Source: Dehalococcoidia bacterium
GTDB lineage: Bacteria > Chloroflexota > Dehalococcoidia > UBA6926
Direction of reading: 5' to 3'
Assembly (NCBI GenBank): GCA_009841045.1
Contig: VXMO01000043.1
Coordinates: forward strand, 58,670 to 122,669
DNA: 64,000 bases
Under the pieces are notes generated by a model. That model had not been told where the DNA came from. It ran no database searches and was given only the letters and a program-made list of their open reading frames with translations. The position numbers and the translations under genes are program-made. Positions within the stretch are counted from its first letter, which is position 1. Every line of letters begins with the position of its first letter. Positions 21,150-59,087 of this stretch are shown piece by piece.

Positions 21150-22901
21150 TTGAGTGCAGGCTGCATGAGTCAAATTCGCTACGAACCTGAAGAAAACTGC
21201 CCGCCGTTAACAGCGGTAACCGCAGCTTTACAGATACTCATACCCAACACTATCAGCCTCGTTCTGCTGACGGCGCTGGTAGTGCGCGCAGCCGGCGAAT
21301 CCGATGCCTACCTCTCTTGGGTCACCTTTACCGCCCTCGTCGTCACCGGCGCCGGCATGATCCTGCAGACGCTGCGATTGCGTCATCTGGGCGCTGGCCG
21401 GCTTGTTGTCGCGAACTTCAATGTGCCTTTCCTGGCCGTGTGCGCTCTGGCGCTCTCCGTGGGCGGACCCGGATTGCTGGCCAGTCTGGTGGTGGCGTCA
21501 ACCCTCATTCAGGCCGTCCTGACTTTTCGTCTCGCCTCTCTCCGCCTCATCTTCACACAGACAGTGAGCGGAATCGTCGTCATGCTCGTGGCGATATCGG
21601 CCATGCCATTCATCATCGGCAGAGTGGTCACACCGCCGGAAGGCGAGTCAACCCTGGTGTTCCTTGCGCCGGGCCTGGCCGCCCTGGCTGTCGGCGTTCT
21701 CATCGCCCTGCAGGACAGGCCCGTGTGGCGCATGTGGATCCTCACAATCACCGTCGCAGTCGGAATGCTGGTCGCCGTGCCTCTGGGCTTCTATGACACG
21801 AACCCCATCGCCGAGGCCCCCTGGGTGAGCCTGCCTCTCTACCCATGGCCTGCCCTGGATATCGCCTTCAACGCCGATTTCTGGACCCTCCTGCCGGTCT
21901 TCGTACTCGTGAATCTCACCGGATTTATGAAGGTAGTGGGCGACCTGTCTGTCATCTATCGCGCCTCCTACCGCCGGCAATCCGCCGTTGACTTTCGCGC
22001 GGTTCAGGGAGGCCTGAATGTCTACGGCATCGGCACCTTTGTGTCCGGCCTCCTGGGGACCCTGCCTGTCGCCGCTCCATGGTCGTCCACTGCCGTGTAT
22101 ATCGGCTTCATCGGCGTTGCGGCCAGAAATGTTGGACTGTACCTGGGTGTGCTGACCATCATCGCCGCCTTCTTTTCCAAGTTCCTTGCCGTCATTGTCG
22201 CCATTCCCAGCCCCGTCGTCAGCGCGGTATACATCATCATCTTTGCCATGCTCTTTGTGGAAGGGGCCAAAACCGTCTTCACCGGACAGATTGACCAGAA
22301 AAAGGCCGCCATCACCGGCGTCTCTATGGTGATGGGCTTGTCTGCGGTGGCATTGAGCCGCCTCTTCGAGGGCAACGTCGGCCATCTTGTCAGCAACCCT
22401 ATTGTCGTCGGCGGCGCGGTTGCCATCGCCATGACACTGATCGCCCAGATGCCGCGTCTACGCGCGAGCACACTGCGGATCGACTTGTCTCCGGCCTCCC
22501 CGGCCGCTGTCGATGAATTCCTCGGCAGGTTCGCGGACAAACAGTCGTGGACAGAGGAGGGGGCGAACCGGCTGCGTCTTGTCGGAGAAGAAGCCATCCT
22601 CAGCCTGCTCGAATCCGGAAAGGAAGGCGCCTCCCCACAGAAGCGTTCGCTGGTCGCTACAATCAGCCCCGACGGCGCTTCCGCCGAGCTTGAGATTATC
22701 GTCGCCTCCAACGACGCCATCCAGGGCAACATTGAGGATCGCATGGCCTATCTCGGGCAGGATCAGGCGCTGGAAGACGAGCAGGAACTGTCCGTCCGCA
22801 TCCTGCGCCACTACGCCTCATCCGTGCAGCACCGCCAGTACTACGGCATCGACATCGTCAACTGCCGCGTCACAGATAACCAGCGAGAACGCGTCCGCTA
22901 A
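21150..22901 (+). CDS. NCS2 (xanthine/uracil permease) family transporter with ~150-aa C-terminal cytoplasmic extension
   Basis: Resembles XanQ/UraA (YGIGTFVSGLLGTLP...AARNVGLY, IPSPVVSAVYIIIFAMLFVEGAKTV). About 12 predicted TM segments. Confidence 0.65.
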   Translation: MSAGCMSQIRYEPEENCPPLTAVTAALQILIPNTISLVLLTALVVRAAGESDAYLSWVTFTALVVTGAGMILQTLRLRHLGAGRLVVANFNVPFLAVCALALSVGGPGLLASLVVASTLIQAVLTFRLASLRLIFTQTVSGIVVMLVAISAMPFIIGRVVTPPEGESTLVFLAPGLAALAVGVLIALQDRPVWRMWILTITVAVGMLVAVPLGFYDTNPIAEAPWVSLPLYPWPALDIAFNADFWTLLPVFVLVNLTGFMKVVGDLSVIYRASYRRQSAVDFRAVQGGLNVYGIGTFVSGLLGTLPVAAPWSSTAVYIGFIGVAARNVGLYLGVLTIIAAFFSKFLAVIVAIPSPVVSAVYIIIFAMLFVEGAKTVFTGQIDQKKAAITGVSMVMGLSAVALSRLFEGNVGHLVSNPIVVGGAVAIAMTLIAQMPRLRASTLRIDLSPASPAAVDEFLGRFADKQSWTEEGANRLRLVGEEAILSLLESGKEGASPQKRSLVATISPDGASAELEIIVASNDAIQGNIEDRMAYLGQDQALEDEQELSVRILRHYASSVQHRQYYGIDIVNCRVTDNQRERVR

Positions 22902-22902
22902 T

Positions 22903-23700
22903 CCTCCCATGTCATTCCGAGCGGAGCGCAGCGGAGTCGAGGAATCCAAAGACTCAATTGCGCCACTCAACCCCGTAACCGCACTCCCCTCATTCCTGCG
23001 AAAGCAGGAATCCATCGGGACTCCTCACCGTCATTCCCGTGAACGCGGGAATCCAGTGCTGCGCGCAACGCCTCTCATGTCATTCCGAGCGCAGCCGAGG
23101 AATCCAAAGACCCACGTACGCCACTCTACTCCGTAACCACACTCCCCTCATTCCTGCGAAAGCGGGAATCCAGTGCGGCGCGCCAGCGCCGTCTCTCATG
23201 TCATTCTGAGCGCAACGAAGAATCCAAAAACTCCAATCCTCCGCCGAAGCCGGAACGCGGCTGCCAAACTGCACTGGCCAGACAATCTGGAACACGAACC
23301 GAGAGCCGTAACGCAGTTACCCGCTCGCCCTGAGCCTGTCGAAGGGTGAGCACCCCCCTCCGTCATTCCCGTGAACGCGGGAATCCAGTGCTGCGCGCAA
23401 CGCCTCTCATGTCATTCTGAGCGCAGCGAAGAATCCAAAGCCTCAATTGCGCCCCCCAACCCCGTAACCGCACTCCCCTCATTCCTGCGAATGCAGGAAT
23501 CCATCGGGACTACCTCACCTTTGGTGGGGGAGGAGTAAGGTGGGGCAACACAACCCCCGCTCGCCCTGAGCCTGTCGAAGGGTGAACCCCAATCCGTCAT
23601 TCCCGCGAAAGCATGCCCCGTACCCCGATACGGGGCGGGAACCCAGTGCGGCGCGCAGCGCCGCCTCTCATGTCATTCTGAGCGCAGCCGAGGAATCAGT
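22903..23700. repeat. ~800-bp mosaic array of small palindromic repeat units (REP/BIME-like), four unit types
   Basis: Interleaved unit types: S (gtcattcYgagcgcagcgaRgaatccaaagac), P (ccgtaaccgcactcccctcattcctgcgaaagcaggaatcc), V (gtcattcccgtgaacgcgggaatccagtgcKgcgcgcaacgcctc) and L (cgctcgccctgagcctgtcgaagggtga). Each carries an internal hairpin. Spacing is irregular with two unique inserts of ~90 nt and ~50 nt. No coding potential. Confidence 0.8.
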
Positions 23701-47430: not shown

Positions 47431-48942
47431 TTGAGACAACTGACGGATAGGCTGCGTACGGCCGGCTACTACAAATGGCTCGTGCTTCTCACGGTTGGCG
47501 TGAGCATCCTCACAAGCGCCTTCGATGTGGGAATAACGAACATAGCGCTACCCGAGCTGGGGCGAGAGTTCGATGTCGAACCGGATGTCATCCTCTGGGT
47601 AAGCGTCATCTACCTGCTGGCAAGCCTCGGGTTGAGCTTGACGTTTGGCAGCCTGGGCGACGCGATTGGCCGGAAGCAGGTCTTCTTGAGCGGCTTCCTA
47701 GTGTTTGGTCTTGGACTGGTCATTGCCGCCCTGAGCACAACCCTTCCGATGCTGCTGGTTGCCCGCGTGATTCAGGGTATCGGGTTGGCGCTGTTCATCT
47801 CCAACAGCGACGCTATCGTCGTCGGGGCCTTTCCTGAAGCCGAACGCGCGCGAGCAATCGGGCTAGAGAACGTCTTCGTAGGAATAGGCCTTTCAATTGG
47901 CCCGCTGCTGGGAGGATTCCTACTGGACGTGCTCGGTTGGCAGGCGCTCTTCTACACGCGCATCCCCTTCATCTTGCTGTTCTTTGTAATGGGGCTCGTC
48001 ATTCTGCGAAACGACCGAACGGAGGGCCGACACGTCCGGTTCGACTTCTTTGGCGCAATCCTGCTGTTCATCTTCATGACAACATTCCTGCTCGCGCTCA
48101 ACCGCGGACCGATTCTAGGTTGGTCGGAGCCTCTCATCATTGGCTTCACGACAGCTGCGGCTGCCACGTTTGCCGTGTTCATGTACGTGCAGTCGAGACC
48201 GGACATGATAGTTCTCCAGATTCGCAGGAACGGCGTTCAATTCCTGCGCGAACGTCTACCTATCCTCGAGTTGAACCTGTTCCTAATCCGCCAGTTCTCC
48301 GCGTCAAATGCCACCAACACGCTCCAGTTCATCACGCAGGGTGCACTCATCATTCTGCTTCCGTTCTTCCTTCTGGACGGGCGCGGCCTGACAGCGACGG
48401 AAGCGGGCCTGATACTCGTCACCCTGCCAGTCGTACGGCTTTTCGTCGCTCCATCTGCCGGATGGGTAGCAGACAAGATCCCGACGCGAGTGATTGCCAC
48501 CTTTGGACTCGCTCTGATGACGGTGGCCTACTATGCGCTGACATATATCGGAATCGATACGCACATCGCCATCTTTGTGGTCGTTCTGATGTCTCTGGGA
48601 ACGGGCATCTCCATCTTTGAGCCGGGCAACAACACCGCCCTCGTCAGTTCCGTACCACCTCATCGACTCGGAACAGCCTCCGCCATGATAGCCACCGTCA
48701 GGCAGGTCAGCCAGGCAACAGGCATCGCCATAGCAGGAACACTCTTTGCCGTCATTCAGCGCGATGAAGAAGCGAGGCTCCTAGGCGCTGAAGTGGACGC
48801 GGGAACGGCAATGGCTCAGTCAGTAACCACGGGCTACCAGGACGTCATTACGTACCTGACAGTGCTGCTCGTGGTAGCGATATTCGTGTCCGCGCTCCGC
48901 GGACGGGACCCGGTGCGTGTGAGCGCTACACCCCAACCATGA
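47431..48942 (+). CDS. MFS transporter, tandem paralog of the preceding gene
   Basis: Roughly 60% identical to the upstream MFS protein over the full length, with the same topology. Confidence 0.8.
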   Translation: MRQLTDRLRTAGYYKWLVLLTVGVSILTSAFDVGITNIALPELGREFDVEPDVILWVSVIYLLASLGLSLTFGSLGDAIGRKQVFLSGFLVFGLGLVIAALSTTLPMLLVARVIQGIGLALFISNSDAIVVGAFPEAERARAIGLENVFVGIGLSIGPLLGGFLLDVLGWQALFYTRIPFILLFFVMGLVILRNDRTEGRHVRFDFFGAILLFIFMTTFLLALNRGPILGWSEPLIIGFTTAAAATFAVFMYVQSRPDMIVLQIRRNGVQFLRERLPILELNLFLIRQFSASNATNTLQFITQGALIILLPFFLLDGRGLTATEAGLILVTLPVVRLFVAPSAGWVADKIPTRVIATFGLALMTVAYYALTYIGIDTHIAIFVVVLMSLGTGISIFEPGNNTALVSSVPPHRLGTASAMIATVRQVSQATGIAIAGTLFAVIQRDEEARLLGAEVDAGTAMAQSVTTGYQDVITYLTVLLVVAIFVSALRGRDPVRVSATPQP

Positions 48943-48981
48943 CCTCCCAATTAGGAGGAGGACAAGTCATGCTGGTACTGG

Positions 48982-49446
48982 TTAGCCGGAGAGGCCCCTG
49001 ACAGCTTCCAGTGCTTCATTCGCGTGACGCTCCATGTCACCGGGATCATCGATGATATGACGGAGGATGCCCTCCTTGTCGATGACGTAGGTGACGCGGC
49101 GGATCATACTGCGCTCTTCATTCCACGCCCCGAGCGTCTTGGCCGCCTCATGGCTTGGATAACCGCTAACGAGCCTGTAGCTCAGACCACAATGCTCCGC
49201 AAACGCTGCCTGGCTCGGAATCAAATCGACGCTTGAACCCCAGACCTGGGTGTTGAGCTTTCGGAATTCCTCGTGCAAACGCTCGAATTCCCTCAGCTCA
49301 CGCTCTCAACCACCTGTAAATGCGGCGGCGTAAAACGCGATGACAAGGTTCTCCTCACCCTTGAGGTCTGCGGTACTGATCGTCTCTCGAAATCCGGATG
49401 TAAAAGTCAGATCCGGCAGTGGCTGTCCGATTTCAGGCATGGTCAT
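48982..49446 (-). CDS. Bcp/PrxQ-type peroxiredoxin with in-frame UGA (putative selenocysteine) at the peroxidatic position
   Basis: 155-codon frame MTMPEIGQPLPDLTFTSGFRETISTADLKGEENLVIAFYAAAFTGG[UGA]ERELREF...GYPSHEAAKTLGAW...VTYVIDKEGILRHIIDD aligns end to end with E. coli Bcp. The UGA (49306-49308) falls on Bcp Cys45. A 30-nt hairpin starts 13 nt 3' of the UGA. ATG at 49446 has a GGGGGA RBS. Confidence 0.6.
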
Positions 49447-49524
49447 GGTCTGTTCAATCCCCCGTTCGTCGCGGCTAATTCACTTGTGCCGCGCCATCAT
49501 CGTAGCGCGTTGATGTGCTGTCTG

Positions 49525-50004
49525 TCAGCGCAGGACGCCCCGTCTCTCCTTGGGTGCGTGGCAATACCACACCCGACCCGCAAGAGCATCGCGTGTGACC
49601 ACGCCAAATGCGCGACTGTCTCTGCTGTCACCGCGATTGTCGCCGAGCAGAACAAAATCATCCTCCCCGGTTGTCCACTCCGCGCCATCGCCGGAATTCG
49701 GCCTCGACGGAGCGCGTGAGACATACGACTCCGGCAGCGGCTGACCGTTCACGTAAATCGCTCCGTCTACCATTGCGATTTGCTCATTTGGCAGACCGCA
49801 AACCCGTTTAATGGATACCCCTCCGGATTCCGGTTCCCTGAATGCCACAACGTCACCCCTTTGCGGCACTCCACCGGGGAAACGCCGAGACACCAGAACC
49901 ATGTCGCCCTCCAGCAGATATGGTTCCATGCTATGGCCGACCACGCGGAACCGGAGGGAGCTGAACAGATCCAGCAGGCGTGGAGGATGCAGCCACCAGG
50001 GCAT
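49525..50004 (-). CDS. sodX: S26-family signal-peptidase-like protease, probable Ni-SOD maturation peptidase SodX
   Basis: S26 catalytic Ser/Lys motifs (VVGHSMEPYL, GDNRGDSRDSR), no convincing N-terminal TM anchor, divergently adjacent to sodN. Confidence 0.6.
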   Translation of the reverse strand: MPWWLHPPRLLDLFSSLRFRVVGHSMEPYLLEGDMVLVSRRFPGGVPQRGDVVAFREPESGGVSIKRVCGLPNEQIAMVDGAIYVNGQPLPESYVSRAPSRPNSGDGAEWTTGEDDFVLLGDNRGDSRDSRAFGVVTRDALAGRVWYCHAPKERRGVLR

Positions 50005-50123
50005 CAGAGGCGCCCTGCAATGCCAGCGGCATTCCTTGCCCTTTGAGTGGGGGCTACCGTACAATCTTTCACGTTTGAATCCGCTTAAGCCAACTTGAAA
50101 ACTGGGGACGATAGGAGGAAGAA

Positions 50124-50618
50124 ATGTCCGCACTCAGTATAGCCCTGCGAGCGATTGAAAGGTTCTCACCCGCCAAGCCGGCGAACGCGCACTGCGATAT
50201 CCCATGCGGTATCTATGATCCGCACGCGGCCCAAATTGCGGCGCATACGGTCGTGCGAATGGTGAACTTGATTGAGGATCTGGGCGAGGTCTCAGACGCC
50301 GAGTCGCGCAACAAACTCATACGCTACATCGCCGTCAAGGAAGAGCACGCTGAGCTCGCCAAGAAGGAACTCCGCATCCTGTGGGGTGACTATTTCCGCC
50401 CCGAGCACCTGGAGCAGCATCCGAACCTGCACAACCTGTTCTTCACTGCCATGAAGCAGGGCTCCGCCGCGCGCCAGAGCGTGAGCATGGAGAACGCGCA
50501 GGCTTTGGTAGCAACGGTGCAGGAAATCGCCGAGATTTTCTGGGCCACCAAGGGTGCGGAGACATCCCGACAGCCGTCTCGTCAGACCTCCGGCGGGGAG
50601 ATCGTCTATCCCGCGTAG
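50124..50618 (+). CDS. sodN: Nickel-containing superoxide dismutase precursor
   Basis: Ni-hook motif HCDIPCGIYDP preceded by a 22-aa N-terminal propeptide (MSALSIALRAIERFSPAKPANA). Four-helix bundle remainder (...ELAKKELRILWGDYF...). Confidence 0.9.
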   Translation: MSALSIALRAIERFSPAKPANAHCDIPCGIYDPHAAQIAAHTVVRMVNLIEDLGEVSDAESRNKLIRYIAVKEEHAELAKKELRILWGDYFRPEHLEQHPNLHNLFFTAMKQGSAARQSVSMENAQALVATVQEIAEIFWATKGAETSRQPSRQTSGGEIVYPA

Positions 50619-50637: not shown

Positions 50638-51099
50638 TCACGGATACCCAATATCCCGATCAAAGGACGGCTCTGAATTAACCTGCCCCCCGGCGTTTAG
50701 ATACCATCCGTAGTTCCCGCTGGGCGCGTTCGTCGCGCCCACGTTGAGCGTGGTTTCGGCGGATGTGATCGCGGCCGTGGATTCCAGCCCGCCGTGCTCC
50801 GAGAGTAGCTCGAAGGCGAGCCAGGAGCAGATTTCCCCTCCGTCAGAGCCGTCGCACTGGTAGCCTGCCGCATTCCCCTCCCGTGGCGCGCCAATCTCGC
50901 CGGAGAGGGTTGGCCACTCTGGTTGGGGAAAGACTCGGCTCTCCTGATAGATAGGAATGGCGTCCTGAAGCAGAGATCGGTCGGCCTCATGAGCGCGTTC
51001 GCCGAGGATGCCGCGGATGGTCGGCGCAAGCAGGATGGCAAGTGCAACCAGAACGATGATGATGACGAGGGCGGATAGTTCCCTGGTGAACCGTCGCAC
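50638..51099 (-). CDS. Hypothetical membrane-anchored protein (N-terminal TM, Gly/Ser/Asn-rich ectodomain)
   Basis: Single N-terminal TM helix (LSALVIIIVLVALAILL). No recognisable domain. Co-directional with the small HTH gene upstream. Confidence 0.3.
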   Translation of the reverse strand: MRRFTRELSALVIIIVLVALAILLAPTIRGILGERAHEADRSLLQDAIPIYQESRVFPQPEWPTLSGEIGAPREGNAAGYQCDGSDGGEICSWLAFELLSEHGGLESTAAITSAETTLNVGATNAPSGNYGWYLNAGGQVNSEPSFDRDIGYP

Positions 51100-51126
51100 G
51101 ATGGGGCCTTAGTGGGCCGCCGCCGC

Positions 51127-51357
51127 TCAGGAGGCTTCGCGCTTGATTTCCAGGCTCTCGCCAGGGGCGAGCGCAACGCGCTTGACGGTGAGATTCATCT
51201 TGAGGAGCCAGTACCAGAGAGTCCCCTTGCTGATGCCGAGTTCCTCGGACATGCCCGGCAATCCAAGTTCGTTGTACATTTCAGGCAAAAGCCGCTCAAG
51301 GGGGCGCCCATAGCGCTCCTCAACCTGCTTCATCAACTTGGTTTTTCCGCGTGCCAT
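51127..51357 (-). CDS. Small HTH DNA-binding protein (sigma-70 region-4 / YlxM-like)
   Basis: 76 aa. HTH-like segment MSEELGISKGTLWYWLLKMN. Confidence 0.35.
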   Translation of the reverse strand: MARGKTKLMKQVEERYGRPLERLLPEMYNELGLPGMSEELGISKGTLWYWLLKMNLTVKRVALAPGESLEIKREAS

Positions 51358-52914: not shown

Positions 52915-54951
52915 ATGTTGTTTGAGATTTCAGGCGACCTGCTCCAGCGACACCCAACGTATGTTGTAGGCGTCGTATTCGTGCAGAACGCGACCAAGCC
53001 TTCTCCTGAAAACGTCGGCAAACTCCAACGCACGCTGCAAGAGGAAGTACAGACTGTTCCGTGGAAGCTTGGCGGAGCTGGATTGCATGGCCACTCGGCA
53101 ATTACGCGATGGGAGCAGGCGTTTGAGGCAGAAGGAATCAACCCTCGAACCTATGTGCCGTCGGTCGCCGCCCTTGCACAGCGGTGCCTCCGCGGTGACT
53201 ACATTCGTTCAATCAACCCTGCGGCCGATATCGCCAACCTCATCTCCATGAGACACCTCGTGCCGGTCGGCGCGCACGATGTAGATCGACTGCCCGGAGA
53301 TATCACCGTGCGCCTGAGCCGTGAGGGGGACGCGTTCACGGCTTCCACCGCTGACGAGAAGGAACTGCCAATCGGCGAGCCGGTATACGCGACGGGCGAC
53401 GATATTCGGACCCGTCGCTGGGTGTGGCGACAGGCTGAAACAGCCATGACAATGCCGGAGAGCCGCACGATTGTCTTTCCCGTCGATGGGTTCATGGATG
53501 CGACCGCTGACCGCGTAGAGGCGGCGACGCGGGAACTGGCCCTGTTAGCCAAGGCGACACTTGGCGGAGATGTGTCCTACGGCTATGTGAACGCCGACAA
53601 GCCTTCCCTTTCTGGGGATGATGTCTCGCTGACCCAAGTGGATGACATTGAGGCGGCCACTGCCCCGCTGCTTTCTCTGGACTCACCGGATGAAAGCGCT
53701 GAAACATACCCGTCCCCGCCGGCGGATGAGGCACTCGCCGGATGGTCATTGTCAGACCTACTCCGTCGCGGAATTCTGGACAGCGTAATCGTCGAGGAGG
53801 AATTGCAGGAAGCGCTCGACTCTGGACGGCGACTGACCATCTACGAGGGTTTTGACCCCACAAGCACAAGCCTGCATATCGGCCACTATCTTTCCTTGCG
53901 TGTGCTTCGGTGGTTCCAGCTGCAGGGGCACCGCGTGATCATGCTGTTCGGTGACTTCACCGCCCGCATCGGAGACCCCACCGGCCAGTCCGCTGAACGC
54001 TTGCAGCTAACGCAGGATCAGGTAGTCGCCAACGCGCAGACGTGGCGAAATCAGATCTCTCGCGTGCTTGACCTTGGAGGCGACAACCCCATCGAAATCA
54101 AGTGGAACGGAGAGTGGCTGGATAGTCTCACGCTGCGGGACATGATCGAGATTGCCGCAAACGTAACGGTGCAGCAACTCATTGAACGGGACATGTTCCA
54201 GGAACGCCTCTCGCAGCAACGCCCGCTCCACCTGCATGAGACCCTTTACCCGCTGCTGCAGGGCTACGACTCTGTTGCAATGAGTGTGGATGCGGAGCTT
54301 GGCGGCCGGGACCAGATGTTCAATATGATGGTCGGGCGAGACCTCGTGCGGAATTACAACGGCAAGACCAAACACGTGCTGATGACACCCCTCATCCCGG
54401 GCCTTGATGGTCGCAAGATGAGCAAGTCGTATGGGAACACCGTTGATCTCACTGAGAATCCCGTTGATATGTTCTTCAAGCTGACACAGGTCAGTGATGA
54501 ATTGCTGCCGATGTTCATGAGCGTCCTGACGGACACGCCGGACGACGAGATCGACGGGGTTCGCCTCCGCCTGTCAACGGAGTCCAATCTGCAGAACGCC
54601 CGAGAGCGCTTTGCATGGGCCGTCACAGAGCGCCTGCACGGCACCGATGAGGCGCAGCGGGCTCAGAAAGAGTTCACGCGTGTCGTGGATGAAGGCAGCA
54701 TGCGGCAGGACGTGGAGGAGGTCTTCCTGAAGCCTCGGGCAGAGCCTCTGACGATTCTTGACGTTGCGGTTGCGACGGGTCTGGCAACAAGCCGCAGCGA
54801 CGCCCGCCGCCTCATCCAGCAGGGTGGCCTTGAAATCAATGACCAGCGCCATACCGAGCCCACGCTGCAGCTCTCGCCGGAGGACGTGGAGGGTGCAATT
54901 ATCAAGATGGGCAAGCGTGGATTCGTGCGGATGAAGGTGGAGCGAGCATGA
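52915..54951 (+). CDS. tyrS: Tyrosyl-tRNA synthetase with N-terminal B3/4-domain extension (678 aa)
   Basis: Residues ~290-678 are a complete TyrRS (HIGH = HIGH at FDPTSTSLHIGHY; KMSKS = KMSKS; C-terminal S4 domain). Residues ~1-230 align to the PheT B3/4 domain (INPAADIANLISMRHLVPVGAHDVDRLPGDITVRLSREGDAFTA...). A single uninterrupted frame. Confidence 0.85.
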   Translation: MLFEISGDLLQRHPTYVVGVVFVQNATKPSPENVGKLQRTLQEEVQTVPWKLGGAGLHGHSAITRWEQAFEAEGINPRTYVPSVAALAQRCLRGDYIRSINPAADIANLISMRHLVPVGAHDVDRLPGDITVRLSREGDAFTASTADEKELPIGEPVYATGDDIRTRRWVWRQAETAMTMPESRTIVFPVDGFMDATADRVEAATRELALLAKATLGGDVSYGYVNADKPSLSGDDVSLTQVDDIEAATAPLLSLDSPDESAETYPSPPADEALAGWSLSDLLRRGILDSVIVEEELQEALDSGRRLTIYEGFDPTSTSLHIGHYLSLRVLRWFQLQGHRVIMLFGDFTARIGDPTGQSAERLQLTQDQVVANAQTWRNQISRVLDLGGDNPIEIKWNGEWLDSLTLRDMIEIAANVTVQQLIERDMFQERLSQQRPLHLHETLYPLLQGYDSVAMSVDAELGGRDQMFNMMVGRDLVRNYNGKTKHVLMTPLIPGLDGRKMSKSYGNTVDLTENPVDMFFKLTQVSDELLPMFMSVLTDTPDDEIDGVRLRLSTESNLQNARERFAWAVTERLHGTDEAQRAQKEFTRVVDEGSMRQDVEEVFLKPRAEPLTILDVAVATGLATSRSDARRLIQQGGLEINDQRHTEPTLQLSPEDVEGAIIKMGKRGFVRMKVERA

Positions 54952-55829
54952 ACTTCGACAGACCGACTGTGGGATTTCTCCAGCCGGAGGCCACCTTCAC
55001 GCACCTTGCGGCCATTGCCCACTTCGGCCGGGATGCCACTTTCGAACCGATGGAATCAGAGGCAATCTGCCAAGCCGTTCAGCAGGGTGAGATCGAATAC
55101 GGTGTGCTGCCGATTGAGAACCTGCTTGAAGGAACCGTGGGAGCGACGCTGGACTTCGTGACAGCGACAGAGGGTATCAACGTCATTGCTGAAGTCTTCT
55201 TGCCTATTCACCACCACCTCCTGACCAAGACGACACTGGAGCAGGTGACGCGCATCTACTCTCATCCGCAGGCACTTAGCCAATGCAGACGGAGTATCCA
55301 GCGCTTATCTGAGGAGTTGGGGCGTGAAATCGAGGTCATTGAAGAATCCAGCACGGCGCGTGGAGCGCAGATAGCCGCAGCGTCTGAAGACCCCGGGGCC
55401 GCGGGATTTGGGAATGTAGTTTGCGGCATTTTATAGAGTGTGTATGGTGTAAGCGTGGAAGAGGGGGGGGGCGCGGGGCATGAGGCACGGAGGTGTGTGC
55501 TGAGTAAGGACAGATTCCCCGAGACTACGGGTGGGGACAAAACGACAATCCTGTTCGACCTCGAGAATCAACCCGGCGCGTTGGTCAAGGTCCTTAGCCT
55601 GTTCTCATCACGCGGATTGAACGCAACGATGCTGCAGTCGCGGCCATCCCGCCTTGATCCGGGGGCAGGCCTGTGGGAATACACCTTCATCGCGGAGTAT
55701 TTGGGACACATACGTGACCAAGGCTTGGCGGAGGCTTACGCTGAAGTTGAGGCCGGGCTGGGCACACTCTGTAAGCGAATCCGTTTGTTGGGTTCATACC
55801 CACGGAGTTCTATGGGTGAGAACGACTAA
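54948..55829 (+). pseudogene. pheA: Prephenate dehydratase (PDT + ACT domains) interrupted by one in-frame TAG
   Basis: PDT domain at 54948-55433 and ACT domain at 55440-55829 are in the same frame, separated only by TAG at 55434-55436. Conservation continues across the stop (..CGIL*SVYGVSV..ARRCVLS.. corresponds to ..ELYGL.IL....NxTRFxVLS). A G10 homopolymer lies 25 nt downstream. Confidence 0.7.
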
Positions 55830-55844
55830 ACACGTACAATTGAA

Positions 55845-57367: not shown

Positions 57368-58435
57368 TCAGGTTGACAACACCCGCGCTAACTCGTCGCG
57401 GGCAAACCGCGGAACATTAACTCCCTGCGGGCGCGGCACAGCGAGACCGATCTGCGTCGCGCGTATGGACGCGCCCTCAAGGGCCGCGATAACGGCAGTT
57501 GCATCGTCGGGAGCAACTGCAAGTAACAGCCCACCCGCAGCAATCAACCCAAGCGGGTCAACACTAAGCGCCCTGCAAATCTCTGTCGCCTCAGGCGAGG
57601 TCATGGCCTCCATGGCATCCGCATCGATATCCAGTCCAACATCTGATGCGTCCGCCATCTCGTGTAGCGCCGTTGCAATGCCACCCTCAGTTGGATCATG
57701 CATGGCGTGGATGGGAACTGTCTTAAGAGCGATATGGGAATCATGGACAACACTGATACCGGGATCATGCAGAAAATCGGCTCCGTGCCGAATGGTCTCA
57801 TCGGAAACCCCAGCGGCGCGCAGCCGATCAGCAACTTCAATTGCCAGGATGGCCGTGCCCTCGATGCCGACACCCTTGGAGAGGACAATCGCATCGCCCT
57901 CCTGAACACCGGATGTTGGCGTTTGTTTGCCTCTAGCAACTTCGCCGATCATCGTGCCAATGGCGATTGGGCGGTCAATGCCGTACGTCACCTCAGTGTG
58001 CCCGCCCACAAGCGTCACCCCGATCTCCGCGCAGGCGTCCAACGTCTGCCGCATGATGTCTTTGGCAAGCTGCGGAGGCGACCCATCCGGCAGGATGACA
58101 GTCATTACCATCCATCTCGGCGTCCCGCCAGTGGCGGCGATATCGTTGGCGTTAACGTGCACTGCGTACCATCCCAGCTGTTCCGCGGCGAAAGTGATGG
58201 GATCTGAGCTAACGACGAGATAGTTCTCCCCGCCGCTATCGATCAGCGCCGCGTCCTCCCCCATGCGCGGCCCAAGTATGACGCTGGGGTCCCCGATATT
58301 GGCCTGCTCAAGCAGTTGGCCAAGGAGATCAGGCGGAAGCTTGCCAACACGAAGAGGGCCGTTCTGTGCGTCTGTCATAAAGCCATTATCCCTGCTTGGG
58401 ATGCATCGAGGAGCGCTGGATGCCCTAAGTTTCAT
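57368..58435 (-). CDS. AIR-synthase-related (PurM-like) protein, HypE/ThiL-like
   Basis: PurM N-terminal (GEDAALID...VVSSDPITF...NDIAATGGTP) and C-terminal domains. Lacks the SelD Cys/Sec motif. Confidence 0.5.
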   Translation of the reverse strand: MKLRASSAPRCIPSRDNGFMTDAQNGPLRVGKLPPDLLGQLLEQANIGDPSVILGPRMGEDAALIDSGGENYLVVSSDPITFAAEQLGWYAVHVNANDIAATGGTPRWMVMTVILPDGSPPQLAKDIMRQTLDACAEIGVTLVGGHTEVTYGIDRPIAIGTMIGEVARGKQTPTSGVQEGDAIVLSKGVGIEGTAILAIEVADRLRAAGVSDETIRHGADFLHDPGISVVHDSHIALKTVPIHAMHDPTEGGIATALHEMADASDVGLDIDADAMEAMTSPEATEICRALSVDPLGLIAAGGLLLAVAPDDATAVIAALEGASIRATQIGLAVPRPQGVNVPRFARDELARVLST

Positions 58436-59087
58436 GGGCAAATGTCAGCGCGTAAACGTTGTTCGCGCCCCCATGCCGTAGCGCCCTGGCTGCTTCAGTG
58501 AGTGTCGCGCCTGTCGTCAAAACATCGTCGATGAGGAGGACATTGGCGCGTCGGATTTGTGCTGGATTTGGGACATGGAACGCGCCGCGCACATTGGCAG
58601 CACGTTCGGCTGCACTCATGGCTCGCGCTTGAACACCCGTCTCCCGCAGTCGGACAAGGGCTGAGATAGCTACGAGACCCGTCATCTGTGAGAGTTCCCG
58701 CGCCAGGAGTCCCGACTGGTCAAATCCCCGTTCCCTAAGCCGCGCGGGATGAACAGGAACGTGAACAATTACGTCAGTGGCCGGACCCCATTCGTGCAGC
58801 ACATCCCCCATCTCCAGTGCAAGAACCGGAGCGAGCGACCTGAGACCGTTGTACTTATAGTGTCGAACAATCTCACGGACGTTGCCTTCATACGGCCAGA
58901 CCGCCCGCGCCGCCCGGATACCGTTTAGCTTTGGAATGGCATCTGGATCAAGGCGAGGCGGCAACGAACGACGGCATGACTCGCAGACAAGATCGCCCTC
59001 CCGTCCACAAAGTACGCAGCGGGGCGGAAACAGAAGTCGCAGGGCCGAATCGGCAAAGTCGCGTAGTCGCATTCTCACTAATGGCAA
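58425..59087 (-). CDS. comF: ComF family protein (zinc finger + phosphoribosyltransferase domain)
   Basis: CxxC...CxxC N-terminus and PRTase motif VLLIDDVLTTGATL. Confidence 0.8.
   Translation of the reverse strand: MPLVRMRLRDFADSALRLLFPPRCVLCGREGDLVCESCRRSLPPRLDPDAIPKLNGIRAARAVWPYEGNVREIVRHYKYNGLRSLAPVLALEMGDVLHEWGPATDVIVHVPVHPARLRERGFDQSGLLARELSQMTGLVAISALVRLRETGVQARAMSAAERAANVRGAFHVPNPAQIRRANVLLIDDVLTTGATLTEAARALRHGGANNVYALTFAHET

Follow-up and report, generated by a model that had tools for sequence, protein, structure and literature searches.

A stretch of 64,000 nucleotides from contig VXMO01000043.1 of a Dehalococcoidia bacterium (assembly GCA_009841045.1), referred to throughout as the window, carries on its minus strand a peroxiredoxin (Prx) gene, 49446 to 48982, whose reading frame passes through one in-frame UGA codon. 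We conclude that this is very probably a genuine selenoprotein gene in which the UGA is decoded as selenocysteine (Sec) at residue 47, the peroxidatic residue of the enzyme. The first-pass annotation of the window had arrived at the same central reading from the letters alone, namely a Prx with a peroxidatic Sec and a hairpin downstream of it. This reading is now supported by conservation of the TGA codon, by nonsynonymous divergence (pN) far below synonymous divergence (pS), by orthologues that carry cysteine (Cys) in its place, by a hairpin with covarying pairs and by the use of TGA as a normal stop elsewhere in the window.

A single reading frame with one internal UGA codon

The frame runs continuously from 49446 to 48982 and comprises 155 codons, with TGA at 49308-49306 as the single internal stop and TAA at 48984-48982 as the terminal one; apart from TGA codon 47 it contains no other internal stops or frameshifts. 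A mechanical list of open reading frames (ORFs) splits the gene into a piece of 46 residues (49306..49446) and a piece of 98 residues with a TTG start (48982..49278). The earlier proposal that one frame leads through a single TGA to an ATG at 49446, with GGGGGA upstream, is borne out by reading the sequence and its translation. When the UGA is translated as Cys, the product matches the Pfam family AhpC-TSA (PF00578) over the whole model (positions 1-124 of 124, E 2e-27, 95.9 bits against a cut-off of 26), and Redoxin (PF08534) also matches, with 54.8 bits. Alignment to the sequences of solved structures places the TGA column on the peroxidatic Cys of Mycobacterium tuberculosis AhpE and of the Sulfolobus tokodaii Prx 2YWN, exactly where the first reading had put it. 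A promoter and terminator scan of 48700-50300 returned weak promoter-like matches only and no terminator.

How unusual is such a frame in this DNA? A mechanical scan of the GC-rich window yielded 189 pairs of ORFs bridged by a TGA, and family homology extends across the TGA only at this one. The search for further selenoproteins among these 189 candidates produced no second one, all of them being consistent with chance in GC-rich DNA.

Conservation of the UGA codon and purifying selection

Among 5.8 billion proteins, the search retrieved 11 homologues. Those with more than 60% identity are all C-terminal fragments of 98-121 residues with the same cut site, or carry a spurious Trp at the Sec position. 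The critical position reads W (AFTGGWERE) in P0003 (71% identity) and P0007 (~48-50% identity), and Cys (AFTGGCERE) in P0004. Inspection of the contigs behind these proteins reveals the same architecture in all, an ORF of 44-46 residues, a TGA and an ORF of 98-104 residues in one continuous frame. The W entries stem from contigs of 523-666 base pairs (bp) whose DNA has TGA there too, and the Trp of P0003 and P0007 is considered spurious because the contig DNA reads TGA and the gene caller used a code in which TGA means Trp. These two loci (P0003, L007 217-555; P0007, L008 109-516), where a presumed Sec codon was translated as Trp, illustrate one source of spurious Trp variants in databases.

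A scan of one genome per bacterial species identified the gene in 24 Dehalococcoidia genomes, each representing a species and many being closed chromosomes of ~1.9 Mb, and the codon is TGA in 24/24. Metagenome contigs contributed more Sec forms, down to ~42% identity, plus the Cys forms L102 and L114. Altogether, TGA in the FTGG context is found in 42 distinct nucleotide sequences from independent assemblies, at ~42-96% protein identity. At the UGA column, L034 (a Lake Baikal Dehalococcoidia genome, 49% identity) has TGT, L102 and L114 have TGC, and homologues from Bryobacterales and other Acidobacteriota read FTGGC. The first-pass annotation had pointed to the choice between Cys and TGA in homologues as a check on its reading, and the outcome is TGA throughout the close Dehalococcoidia genomes and TGT or TGC in more distant relatives. 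The closest relatives come from metagenome-assembled genomes (MAGs) with names suggesting sponge or coral hosts, from TARA Oceans and from other metagenome samples, and proteins identical to those of the window occur on scaffolds of metagenome sample ENGE20-1 (ERZ23491743).

Selection acts on both halves of the frame. Against L001, pN/pS values are 0.011/0.564 over the 40 codons before the TGA and 0.034/0.597 over the 100 codons after it, and pN is far below pS on both sides of the TGA in every pair tested. The synonymous divergence also means that the homologous loci are not copies of one contaminated sequence. The apparent start of the downstream ORF varies among genomes, being TTG or ATG at different codons. 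Recurrence of the same codon in 42 distinct sequences, together with purifying selection on either side of it, shows that the TGA is no lesion. On this comparative evidence it is a codon that has been kept rather than a mutation, the usual pattern by which comparison reveals a selenoprotein gene. A true stop or a truncated gene at homologous loci would have told against the first-pass reading; what is found there is a continuous frame with both halves under purifying selection.

A hairpin downstream of the UGA codon

In the window the hairpin starts 5 nucleotides (nt) 3' of the UGA, with conserved stems from +7, and the 60 nt 3' of the UGA have a minimum free energy (MFE) of -19.9 kcal/mol. 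A stem GGAAUUC...GAAUUCC had been described 13 nt after the UGA; the stem is present, the gap is 14 nt, and it forms only the middle of a longer hairpin extending from 49300 to 49254. A hairpin of some kind follows the UGA in every Sec form. Within the subclade that comprises the window and 30 others, the layout after the UGA is 7 nt, AGCU, 3 nt, GGAAUUC, 15 apical nt, GAAUUCC, 3 nt and AGCU, and for 11 pairs in 31 distinct sequences 341/341 cells are standard pairs. Compensatory changes are seen at one pair from C-G to U-A in L009 and L096 (Leu CUG to UUG together with Lys AAG to AAA) and at a second pair from G-C to A-U in L155, and RNAalifold independently gives the same structure. Two Glu-Phe codon pairs, GA(A/G)-UU(C/U), make up the main stem; they are self-complementary and remain paired under any synonymous choice, and the lower stem AGCU/AGCU is encoded by Glu-Leu and Lys-Leu codons.

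Other subclades encode other peptides here and form different hairpins at the same or nearly the same offset after the UGA. The ELRKFQSLLSEF subclade has a near-perfect hairpin of ~17 bp, the ELVGFQQ subclade has UUGUUGG-GUU-CCAACAA, with its 18 nt unchanged across four sequences that share only ~50-55% identity with the window protein, and L111 has a 7-bp stem with a GUC loop.

Under the model of the bacterial selenocysteine insertion sequence (SECIS), the apical loop has 3-9 nt with a G in one of its first two positions, the upper stem has 4-16 bp, 16-37 nt separate the UGA from the loop and the MFE does not exceed -7.5 kcal/mol (PMC13188914). The window hairpin lies within these limits for spacing (27 nt), MFE (-19.9 kcal/mol) and loop size (4 nt). 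The first-pass view that position and size fit a bacterial SECIS thus holds for spacing, loop size and energy and fails on the loop G, which is weighed below. At the same site the Cys forms L034, L102 and L114 have no hairpin that complies with the model, L114 retaining a weak outer stem; in the Cys orthologues L034 and L102, RFF replaces REF. The mean energy of the 60-nt fold is -18.5 kcal/mol in 42 Sec forms versus -11.7 kcal/mol in 27 Cys forms, the GC content of the Cys forms being equal or higher. Permutation of synonymous codons gives z values of -2.0 for the window, -3.3 for L009 and -3.9 for L103, and the native sequence is the more stable in most Sec forms; the short-hairpin ELVGFQQ class has no such excess at the 60-nt length.

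Peroxiredoxin type and active site

What kind of Prx does the joined frame encode? The first-pass annotation had named it Bcp-type, an identity that is not upheld, the protein being AhpE-like instead. All NCBIfam equivalog scores fall below their cut-offs (AhpC 52/272, E. coli-type Bcp (PRK09437) 52.3/140 and PrxU (NF040737) 26.3/270 bits), and the best matches among solved sequences are 2YWN (top, E 3.7e-15) and AhpE (E ~1e-14). The structure modelled was that of the Sec-form homologue P0007, ~48-50% identical to the window protein, for which AlphaFold gave a predicted local distance difference test score (pLDDT) of 85.2 and a predicted template modelling score (pTM) of 0.80. This model has the thioredoxin-type Prx fold and superposes best on AhpE (template modelling score, TM, 0.88-0.90; root-mean-square deviation 1.7-1.9 Å; 35% identity), with archaeal Bcp proteins next. 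Judged by sequence and predicted fold, the closest relative is AhpE, followed by archaeal BCP, and not Bcp proper.

Thr44 and U47 align with the Thr and the peroxidatic Cys (Cp) of AhpE and 2YWN, and Thr is present in 32/33 Sec forms. In the P0007 model helix alpha2 begins at residue 48, putting the Sec in its first turn. Separately, Ser replaces the catalytic Thr in the Sec-form subclade L098-L100 (AFSGG-U-ERE), a form in which the Prx TxxC motif is rarely seen. At residue -7 from the UGA column, Ala (24), Val (6) and Pro (3) are found in the 33 distinct Sec forms, and Pro in 23/24 Cys forms; the earlier remark that Ala replaces the Pro ahead of the Thr is correct for Ala40, and for the 24/33 Sec forms with Ala.

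It had also been stated that the protein has no resolving Cys and would be a 1-Sec Prx. One Cys does exist, Cys86, which is a plausible resolving residue, and the 1-Sec class is not established; that description is unsafe because Cys86 is near-invariant at the end of helix alpha3. Cys occurs at +39 in 30/33 distinct Sec forms, plus the ERE-type Cys form, and in 0/23 outgroup Cys forms. Its position is the last residue of the predicted helix alpha3 (H76-86) in the P0007 model. Tpx, like a minority of the BCP enzymes, has its resolving Cys in helix alpha3; work by Hall et al. from 2011 is said to place the resolving Cys of some BCPs in this helix. The resolving site of the E. coli Bcp type, Cp+5, is R, K, V or Q here and never Cys. 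From the alignments and the model, resolution would more likely proceed through a Sec47-Cys86 selenenylsulfide.

Weighing the evidence for selenocysteine

TGA terminates 15/48 long ORFs in the window; one of these 15 encodes an aspartyl-tRNA synthetase, a full-length match to its family model. Because TGA is an ordinary stop of these 15 ORFs, it is not reassigned genome-wide.

Several results weigh against decoding of the UGA as Sec. One group concerns the machinery. None of selA, selB, selD and tRNA-Sec was found in the 64-kb window or in an extension of ~10 kb on each side, traced through identical proteins, and the five tRNAs of the window include no tRNA-Sec. Moreover, tblastn searches with approximate E. 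coli SelA, SelB and SelD queries over the window and 173 relative loci returned only EF-Tu, an AIRS paralogue and two weak SelA-query matches, the latter at ~25% identity in Bryobacterales/Acidobacteria loci. The database BSepDB, on the other hand, speaks indirectly for Sec decoding: it covers only species possessing the Sec pathway, and two Dehalococcoidia MAGs, with 46 and 49 selenoprotein genes, are among its ten most selenoprotein-rich bacteria (PMC13326102); one of the two carries an isolate name of the same UUID (universally unique identifier) style as the genomes found here (PMC13326102).

A second group concerns the hairpin. Conservation of the main stem alone cannot separate RNA constraint from protein constraint, because the Glu-Phe...Glu-Phe peptide forces the pairing. 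Four of the comparisons above do favour an RNA constraint: the different hairpins of other subclades, the lack of a compliant hairpin in L034, L102 and L114, the weaker folding of the Cys forms and, in part, the codon-permutation excess of most Sec forms. Dinucleotide shuffling gives z = -1.0, so that the window hairpin alone is not significant, and its codon-permutation z of -2.0 is also weak; since single-sequence significance is weak, the support for the hairpin comes from comparison with relatives. Among Cys forms the codon-permutation z is +0.3 in L034 (no excess) and -1.8 in L102, and folding can be forced into a model-compliant hairpin at or below -7.5 kcal/mol in 9/27 Cys forms (3 near the MFE) versus 28/42 Sec forms. 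The codon-permutation and compliance tests separate the Sec and Cys groups only on average. The loop-G rule, one of four model constraints, fails in the window (UUGC) and in close relatives (CUGC). A window fold that obeys the full SECIS model reaches only -10.4 kcal/mol versus the MFE of -19.9 kcal/mol, and the UUGC loop is closed by a 3-bp mini-stem set on the 7-bp stem across an internal loop, so that an upper stem of 4-16 bp results only if the interrupted stem is counted as one. Rfam at gathering thresholds has no SECIS or other family over the region; a permissive threshold gave one spurious microRNA-hairpin match (49254-49300, E 0.6). The loop-G rule is satisfied in the MFE folds of L008, L101, L111 and L097, with GUU, GUC and GCC loops, and 12.6% of the bacterial selenoprotein entries of BSepDB have no canonical SECIS (PMC13326102). 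On sequence comparison, we regard the element as SECIS-like, comparatively well supported and with a non-canonical loop.

The last of these points is Ala40, which departs from the Pro of PxxxTxxC. A review calls PxxxTxxU "highly conserved" in Sec-Prx (PMC13188914). The departure is a within-family deviation and no argument against the fold.

Could the UGA be read through without selenium? In this alternative, to which we assign a low probability, a suppressor, a tRNA(Sec)-like tRNA or near-cognate readthrough would place Cys, Trp or another residue at the codon, yielding either an ordinary Cys-Prx or an inactive protein. The missing Sec machinery in the window, its ~10 kb flanks and the relatives' loci would be explained, as would the non-canonical loop of the window subclade. 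Two database entries even give W, but only through the gene caller's other code on contigs of 523-666 bp. Trp at the peroxidatic site would kill the enzyme, yet purifying selection on the gene is strong, and TGA is a normal stop in the window. The codon stands at the catalytic Cys/Sec site of a family with experimental Sec forms (PrxU; PMC13188914), and Dehalococcoidia are documented Sec users (PMC13326102). Furthermore, every TGA form has a hairpin at SECIS distance, L034, L102 and L114 have no compliant one, and the Cys group folds more weakly.

It is a very remote possibility that the Prx gene is decaying and that its catalytic Cys codon became TGA by a nonsense mutation or an error of sequencing. 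The window does contain at least one locally corrupted gene, a prephenate dehydratase described below, and standard gene callers split the ORF at the TGA, but a pseudogene is effectively refuted by the presence of this codon in 42 distinct, independently assembled sequences, and the frame has no other stops or frameshifts and pN far below pS on either side. Equally implausible are two separate small proteins of 46 and 98-107 residues with the hairpin as an intercistronic regulatory structure. Public records annotate the locus as two proteins, but each piece by itself falls short of a full thioredoxin fold, the frame is unbroken in all cases, the second piece starts at different codons in different genomes and the Pfam model is matched from end to end once the pieces are joined.

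Genomic neighbourhood

The features of the Prx locus are collected in Table 1. The gene for the S26 peptidase lies 78 nt upstream of the Prx gene on the same strand and adjoins it also in L001, L002, L006 and L009. The order nickel superoxide dismutase (NiSOD) gene sodN, S26 peptidase, Prx recurs in relatives down to 67-71% identity. As read from the sequence, this gene order fits a module for detoxification of superoxide to peroxide and of peroxide to water.

Table 1 Coordinates of the Prx gene, its elements and the adjoining genes in the window
Feature	Position	Strand	Basis or remark
Probable complete selenoprotein gene, 154-residue AhpE-like Prx (Sec47)	48982..49446	-	ATG 49446-49444, TAA 48984-48982; frame, Pfam, orthologue architecture, pN far below pS
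UGA codon 47, peroxidatic position, motif A-x-x-x-T-G-G-U, probably read as Sec	49306..49308	-	aligns with Cp of AhpE and 2YWN
GGGGGA, Shine-Dalgarno-like candidate, 11 nt 5' of the ATG	49458..49463	-	read from sequence
SECIS-like hairpin	49254..49300	-	lower stem 49300-49295 / 49259-49254; middle stem GGAAUUC 49291-49285 / GAAUUCC 49269-49263
Apical mini-stem CGU/ACG, loop UUGC	49275-49278 (loop)	-	top of the SECIS-like hairpin
Ala40 codon, place of the near-universal Pro of PxxxTxxC	49327..49329	-	residue -7 from the UGA column
Cys86 codon (AEHCG), only Cys of the protein, candidate resolving Cys	49189..49191	-	invariant in alignment A1 (close family)
Arg117 codon, conserved Prx active-site Arg	49096..49098	-	invariant in alignments A1, A4 and A5; aligns with the Arg of ANRGTFVVD in AhpE
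S26 signal-peptidase-family protein, candidate SodX-like NiSOD maturation protease	49525..50133	-	sigpep_I_bact E 1.6e-32; sod_Ni_protease E 1e-11, below cut-off
NiSOD gene sodN, divergent	50124..50618	+	NCBIfam TIGR02753, 159.6 bits against a cut-off of 90

Beside sodN, at 50638-51357 (minus strand) in the window and also in L001, L002 and L006, lie ORFs of 76 and 153 residues without a family match, in one frame with two stops between them; the 153-residue ORF has a hydrophobic N-terminal stretch. This pair was considered as a second selenoprotein, being in the same frame in three genomes, but was rejected on account of the two stops (TGA, TAA) between the ORFs.

A gene at 57368-58441 (minus strand) encodes a protein with AIRS and AIRS_C domains and stands beside a zinc-ribbon phosphoribosyltransferase gene in all relatives; it scores below the HypE, ThiL, SelD and PurM cut-offs. 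As a candidate SelD it was rejected, with 27% identity to E. coli SelD, scores of 109/251 (hypE), 96/184 (thiL) and 84/125 (selD) bits and no GxGC/UK motif, the catalytic Cys/Sec loop.

The prephenate dehydratase gene at 54948-55830 (plus strand) has an in-frame stop at 55434-55436 and a scrambled patch of ~95 nt (~55405-55500). The patch has many substitutions, is C-poor and G-rich and contains three 1-nt indels; the L006 orthologue is 94% identical overall, with mismatches mostly in the patch, which suggests hypermutation or a local fault in assembly or base calling. Lastly, an intergenic array of interspersed short repeats occupies 22900-23700, its families having repeat units of 22-85 nt, 2-6 copies and identities of 67-97%. 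A small palindrome, CATTCCTGCGAAAGCAGGAATCC, occurs in many of these repeats, and they resemble repetitive extragenic palindromic (REP) elements or miniature inverted-repeat transposable elements (MITEs).

Discussion

How does this gene compare with Sec-containing Prx already described? PrxU of Eubacterium acidaminophilum is a Sec-Prx proven experimentally (Sohling et al. 2001, cited in PMC13188914). In the Global Ocean Sampling data, the family "Prx, pfam00578, TxxU" accounts for 253 sequences and ranks sixth in abundance among selenoprotein families (Zhang & Gladyshev 2008, PMC2398784). The first-pass annotation had called Sec-containing Prx rare, a description that does not stand, few selenoprotein families being more abundant than TxxU Prx in ocean metagenomes (PMC2398784). 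The window protein shares with the marine TxxU Prx and with PrxU the PF00578 fold, Sec in place of the peroxidatic Cys in T-x-x-U, a hairpin 3' of the UGA within the coding region, many Cys homologues and a marine occurrence. Because the motif, the fold family and the recoding layout are the same, the gene is a so far mis-annotated member of the known Sec-Prx type. It is no PrxU equivalog (26 vs 270 bits), and it differs from TxxU Prx and PrxU in being AhpE-like, single-domain and 154 residues long, in a motif A/V-xxx-T-G-G-U rather than PxxxTxxU and, within the window's subclade, in an apical loop without the consensus G.

With M. tuberculosis AhpE (Rv2238c; PDB 1XXU, 1XVW, 4X0X), a 1-Cys Prx, the window protein has in common its length, the AFTG-x-C context and the conserved Arg, whereas AhpE has Cys, Pro and Ser where the window protein has Sec, Ala and the near-invariant Cys86. 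The BCP/PrxQ proteins (E. coli Bcp; archaeal Bcp1/Bcp4, 3DRN and 3HJP; S. tokodaii 2YWN) are likewise small Prx of the monomer-type fold, but the window protein is under the Bcp cut-off and has no Cys at Cp+5, and the P0007 model is nearer to AhpE.

A second, unrelated Sec-Prx clade, with the motif AFYPAAFTPV-U-T[VI]QMPSYEEDL (L058, L069, L070, L080, L083, L086-L089 and L091), occurs in Acidobacteriota, Myxococcota and a Chloroflexota MAG and was used as a positive control for the loops of the SECIS model. It resembles the window gene in fold family, in the UGA column and in an apical loop 27 nt after the UGA. In contrast to the window gene, this clade keeps the Pro, has G-first loops (GAUCU/GACCU) in 7/8, is ~33-38% identical and is without ERE and Cys86. 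The second clade and the FTGG-U clade probably acquired Sec independently.

By analogy with the established bacterial mechanism, the hairpin at 49300-49254 would act as a SECIS during translation and recruit SelB-GTP-Sec-tRNA(Sec), and the ribosome would insert Sec rather than terminate. Family membership suggests that the Sec47 selenolate, activated by Thr44 and Arg117, would reduce H2O2 or an organic peroxide and be converted to a selenenic acid, that Cys86 would most likely resolve this selenenic acid as an intramolecular selenenylsulfide, and that a thioredoxin-like reductant would recycle the enzyme. The synteny with sodN points to a likely role in removing the peroxide made by superoxide dismutase in aerobic marine, sponge- and coral-associated Dehalococcoidia.

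A bolder proposal, which we consider rather doubtful, is that the FTGG-U-ERE proteins form a mechanistically distinct AhpE-like subclass confined to aerobic marine and host-associated Dehalococcoidia and their relatives, in which the gain of Sec went together with loss of the Pro, with gain of the alpha3 selenenylsulfide Cys and with a non-canonical, Glu-Phe-coded SECIS. If this were true, SelB would have to recognise a hairpin without the consensus loop G.

Sec-peroxiredoxins and the recoding mechanism are well established, so that nothing here is new in kind and a specialist would not be surprised; the call is useful for annotation. The novelty is modest and resides in the AhpE-like subfamily, in a Sec tied to Pro loss and Cys86, in a palindromic Glu-Phe hairpin with a non-canonical loop and in the linkage to NiSOD. 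The set of hairpins stretches the bacterial SECIS consensus, and a small Prx that occurs naturally in Sec/Cys and Pro/Ala versions is material for studying the catalytic benefit of Sec. Systematic mis-annotation causes metabolic reconstructions to miss this enzyme in the marine, sponge- and coral-associated Dehalococcoidia. As a selenium-dependent peroxidase beside a nickel superoxide dismutase, it would form part of a conserved oxidative-stress module in a small-genome lineage, and a selenium requirement would be implied for the Dehalococcoidia symbionts.

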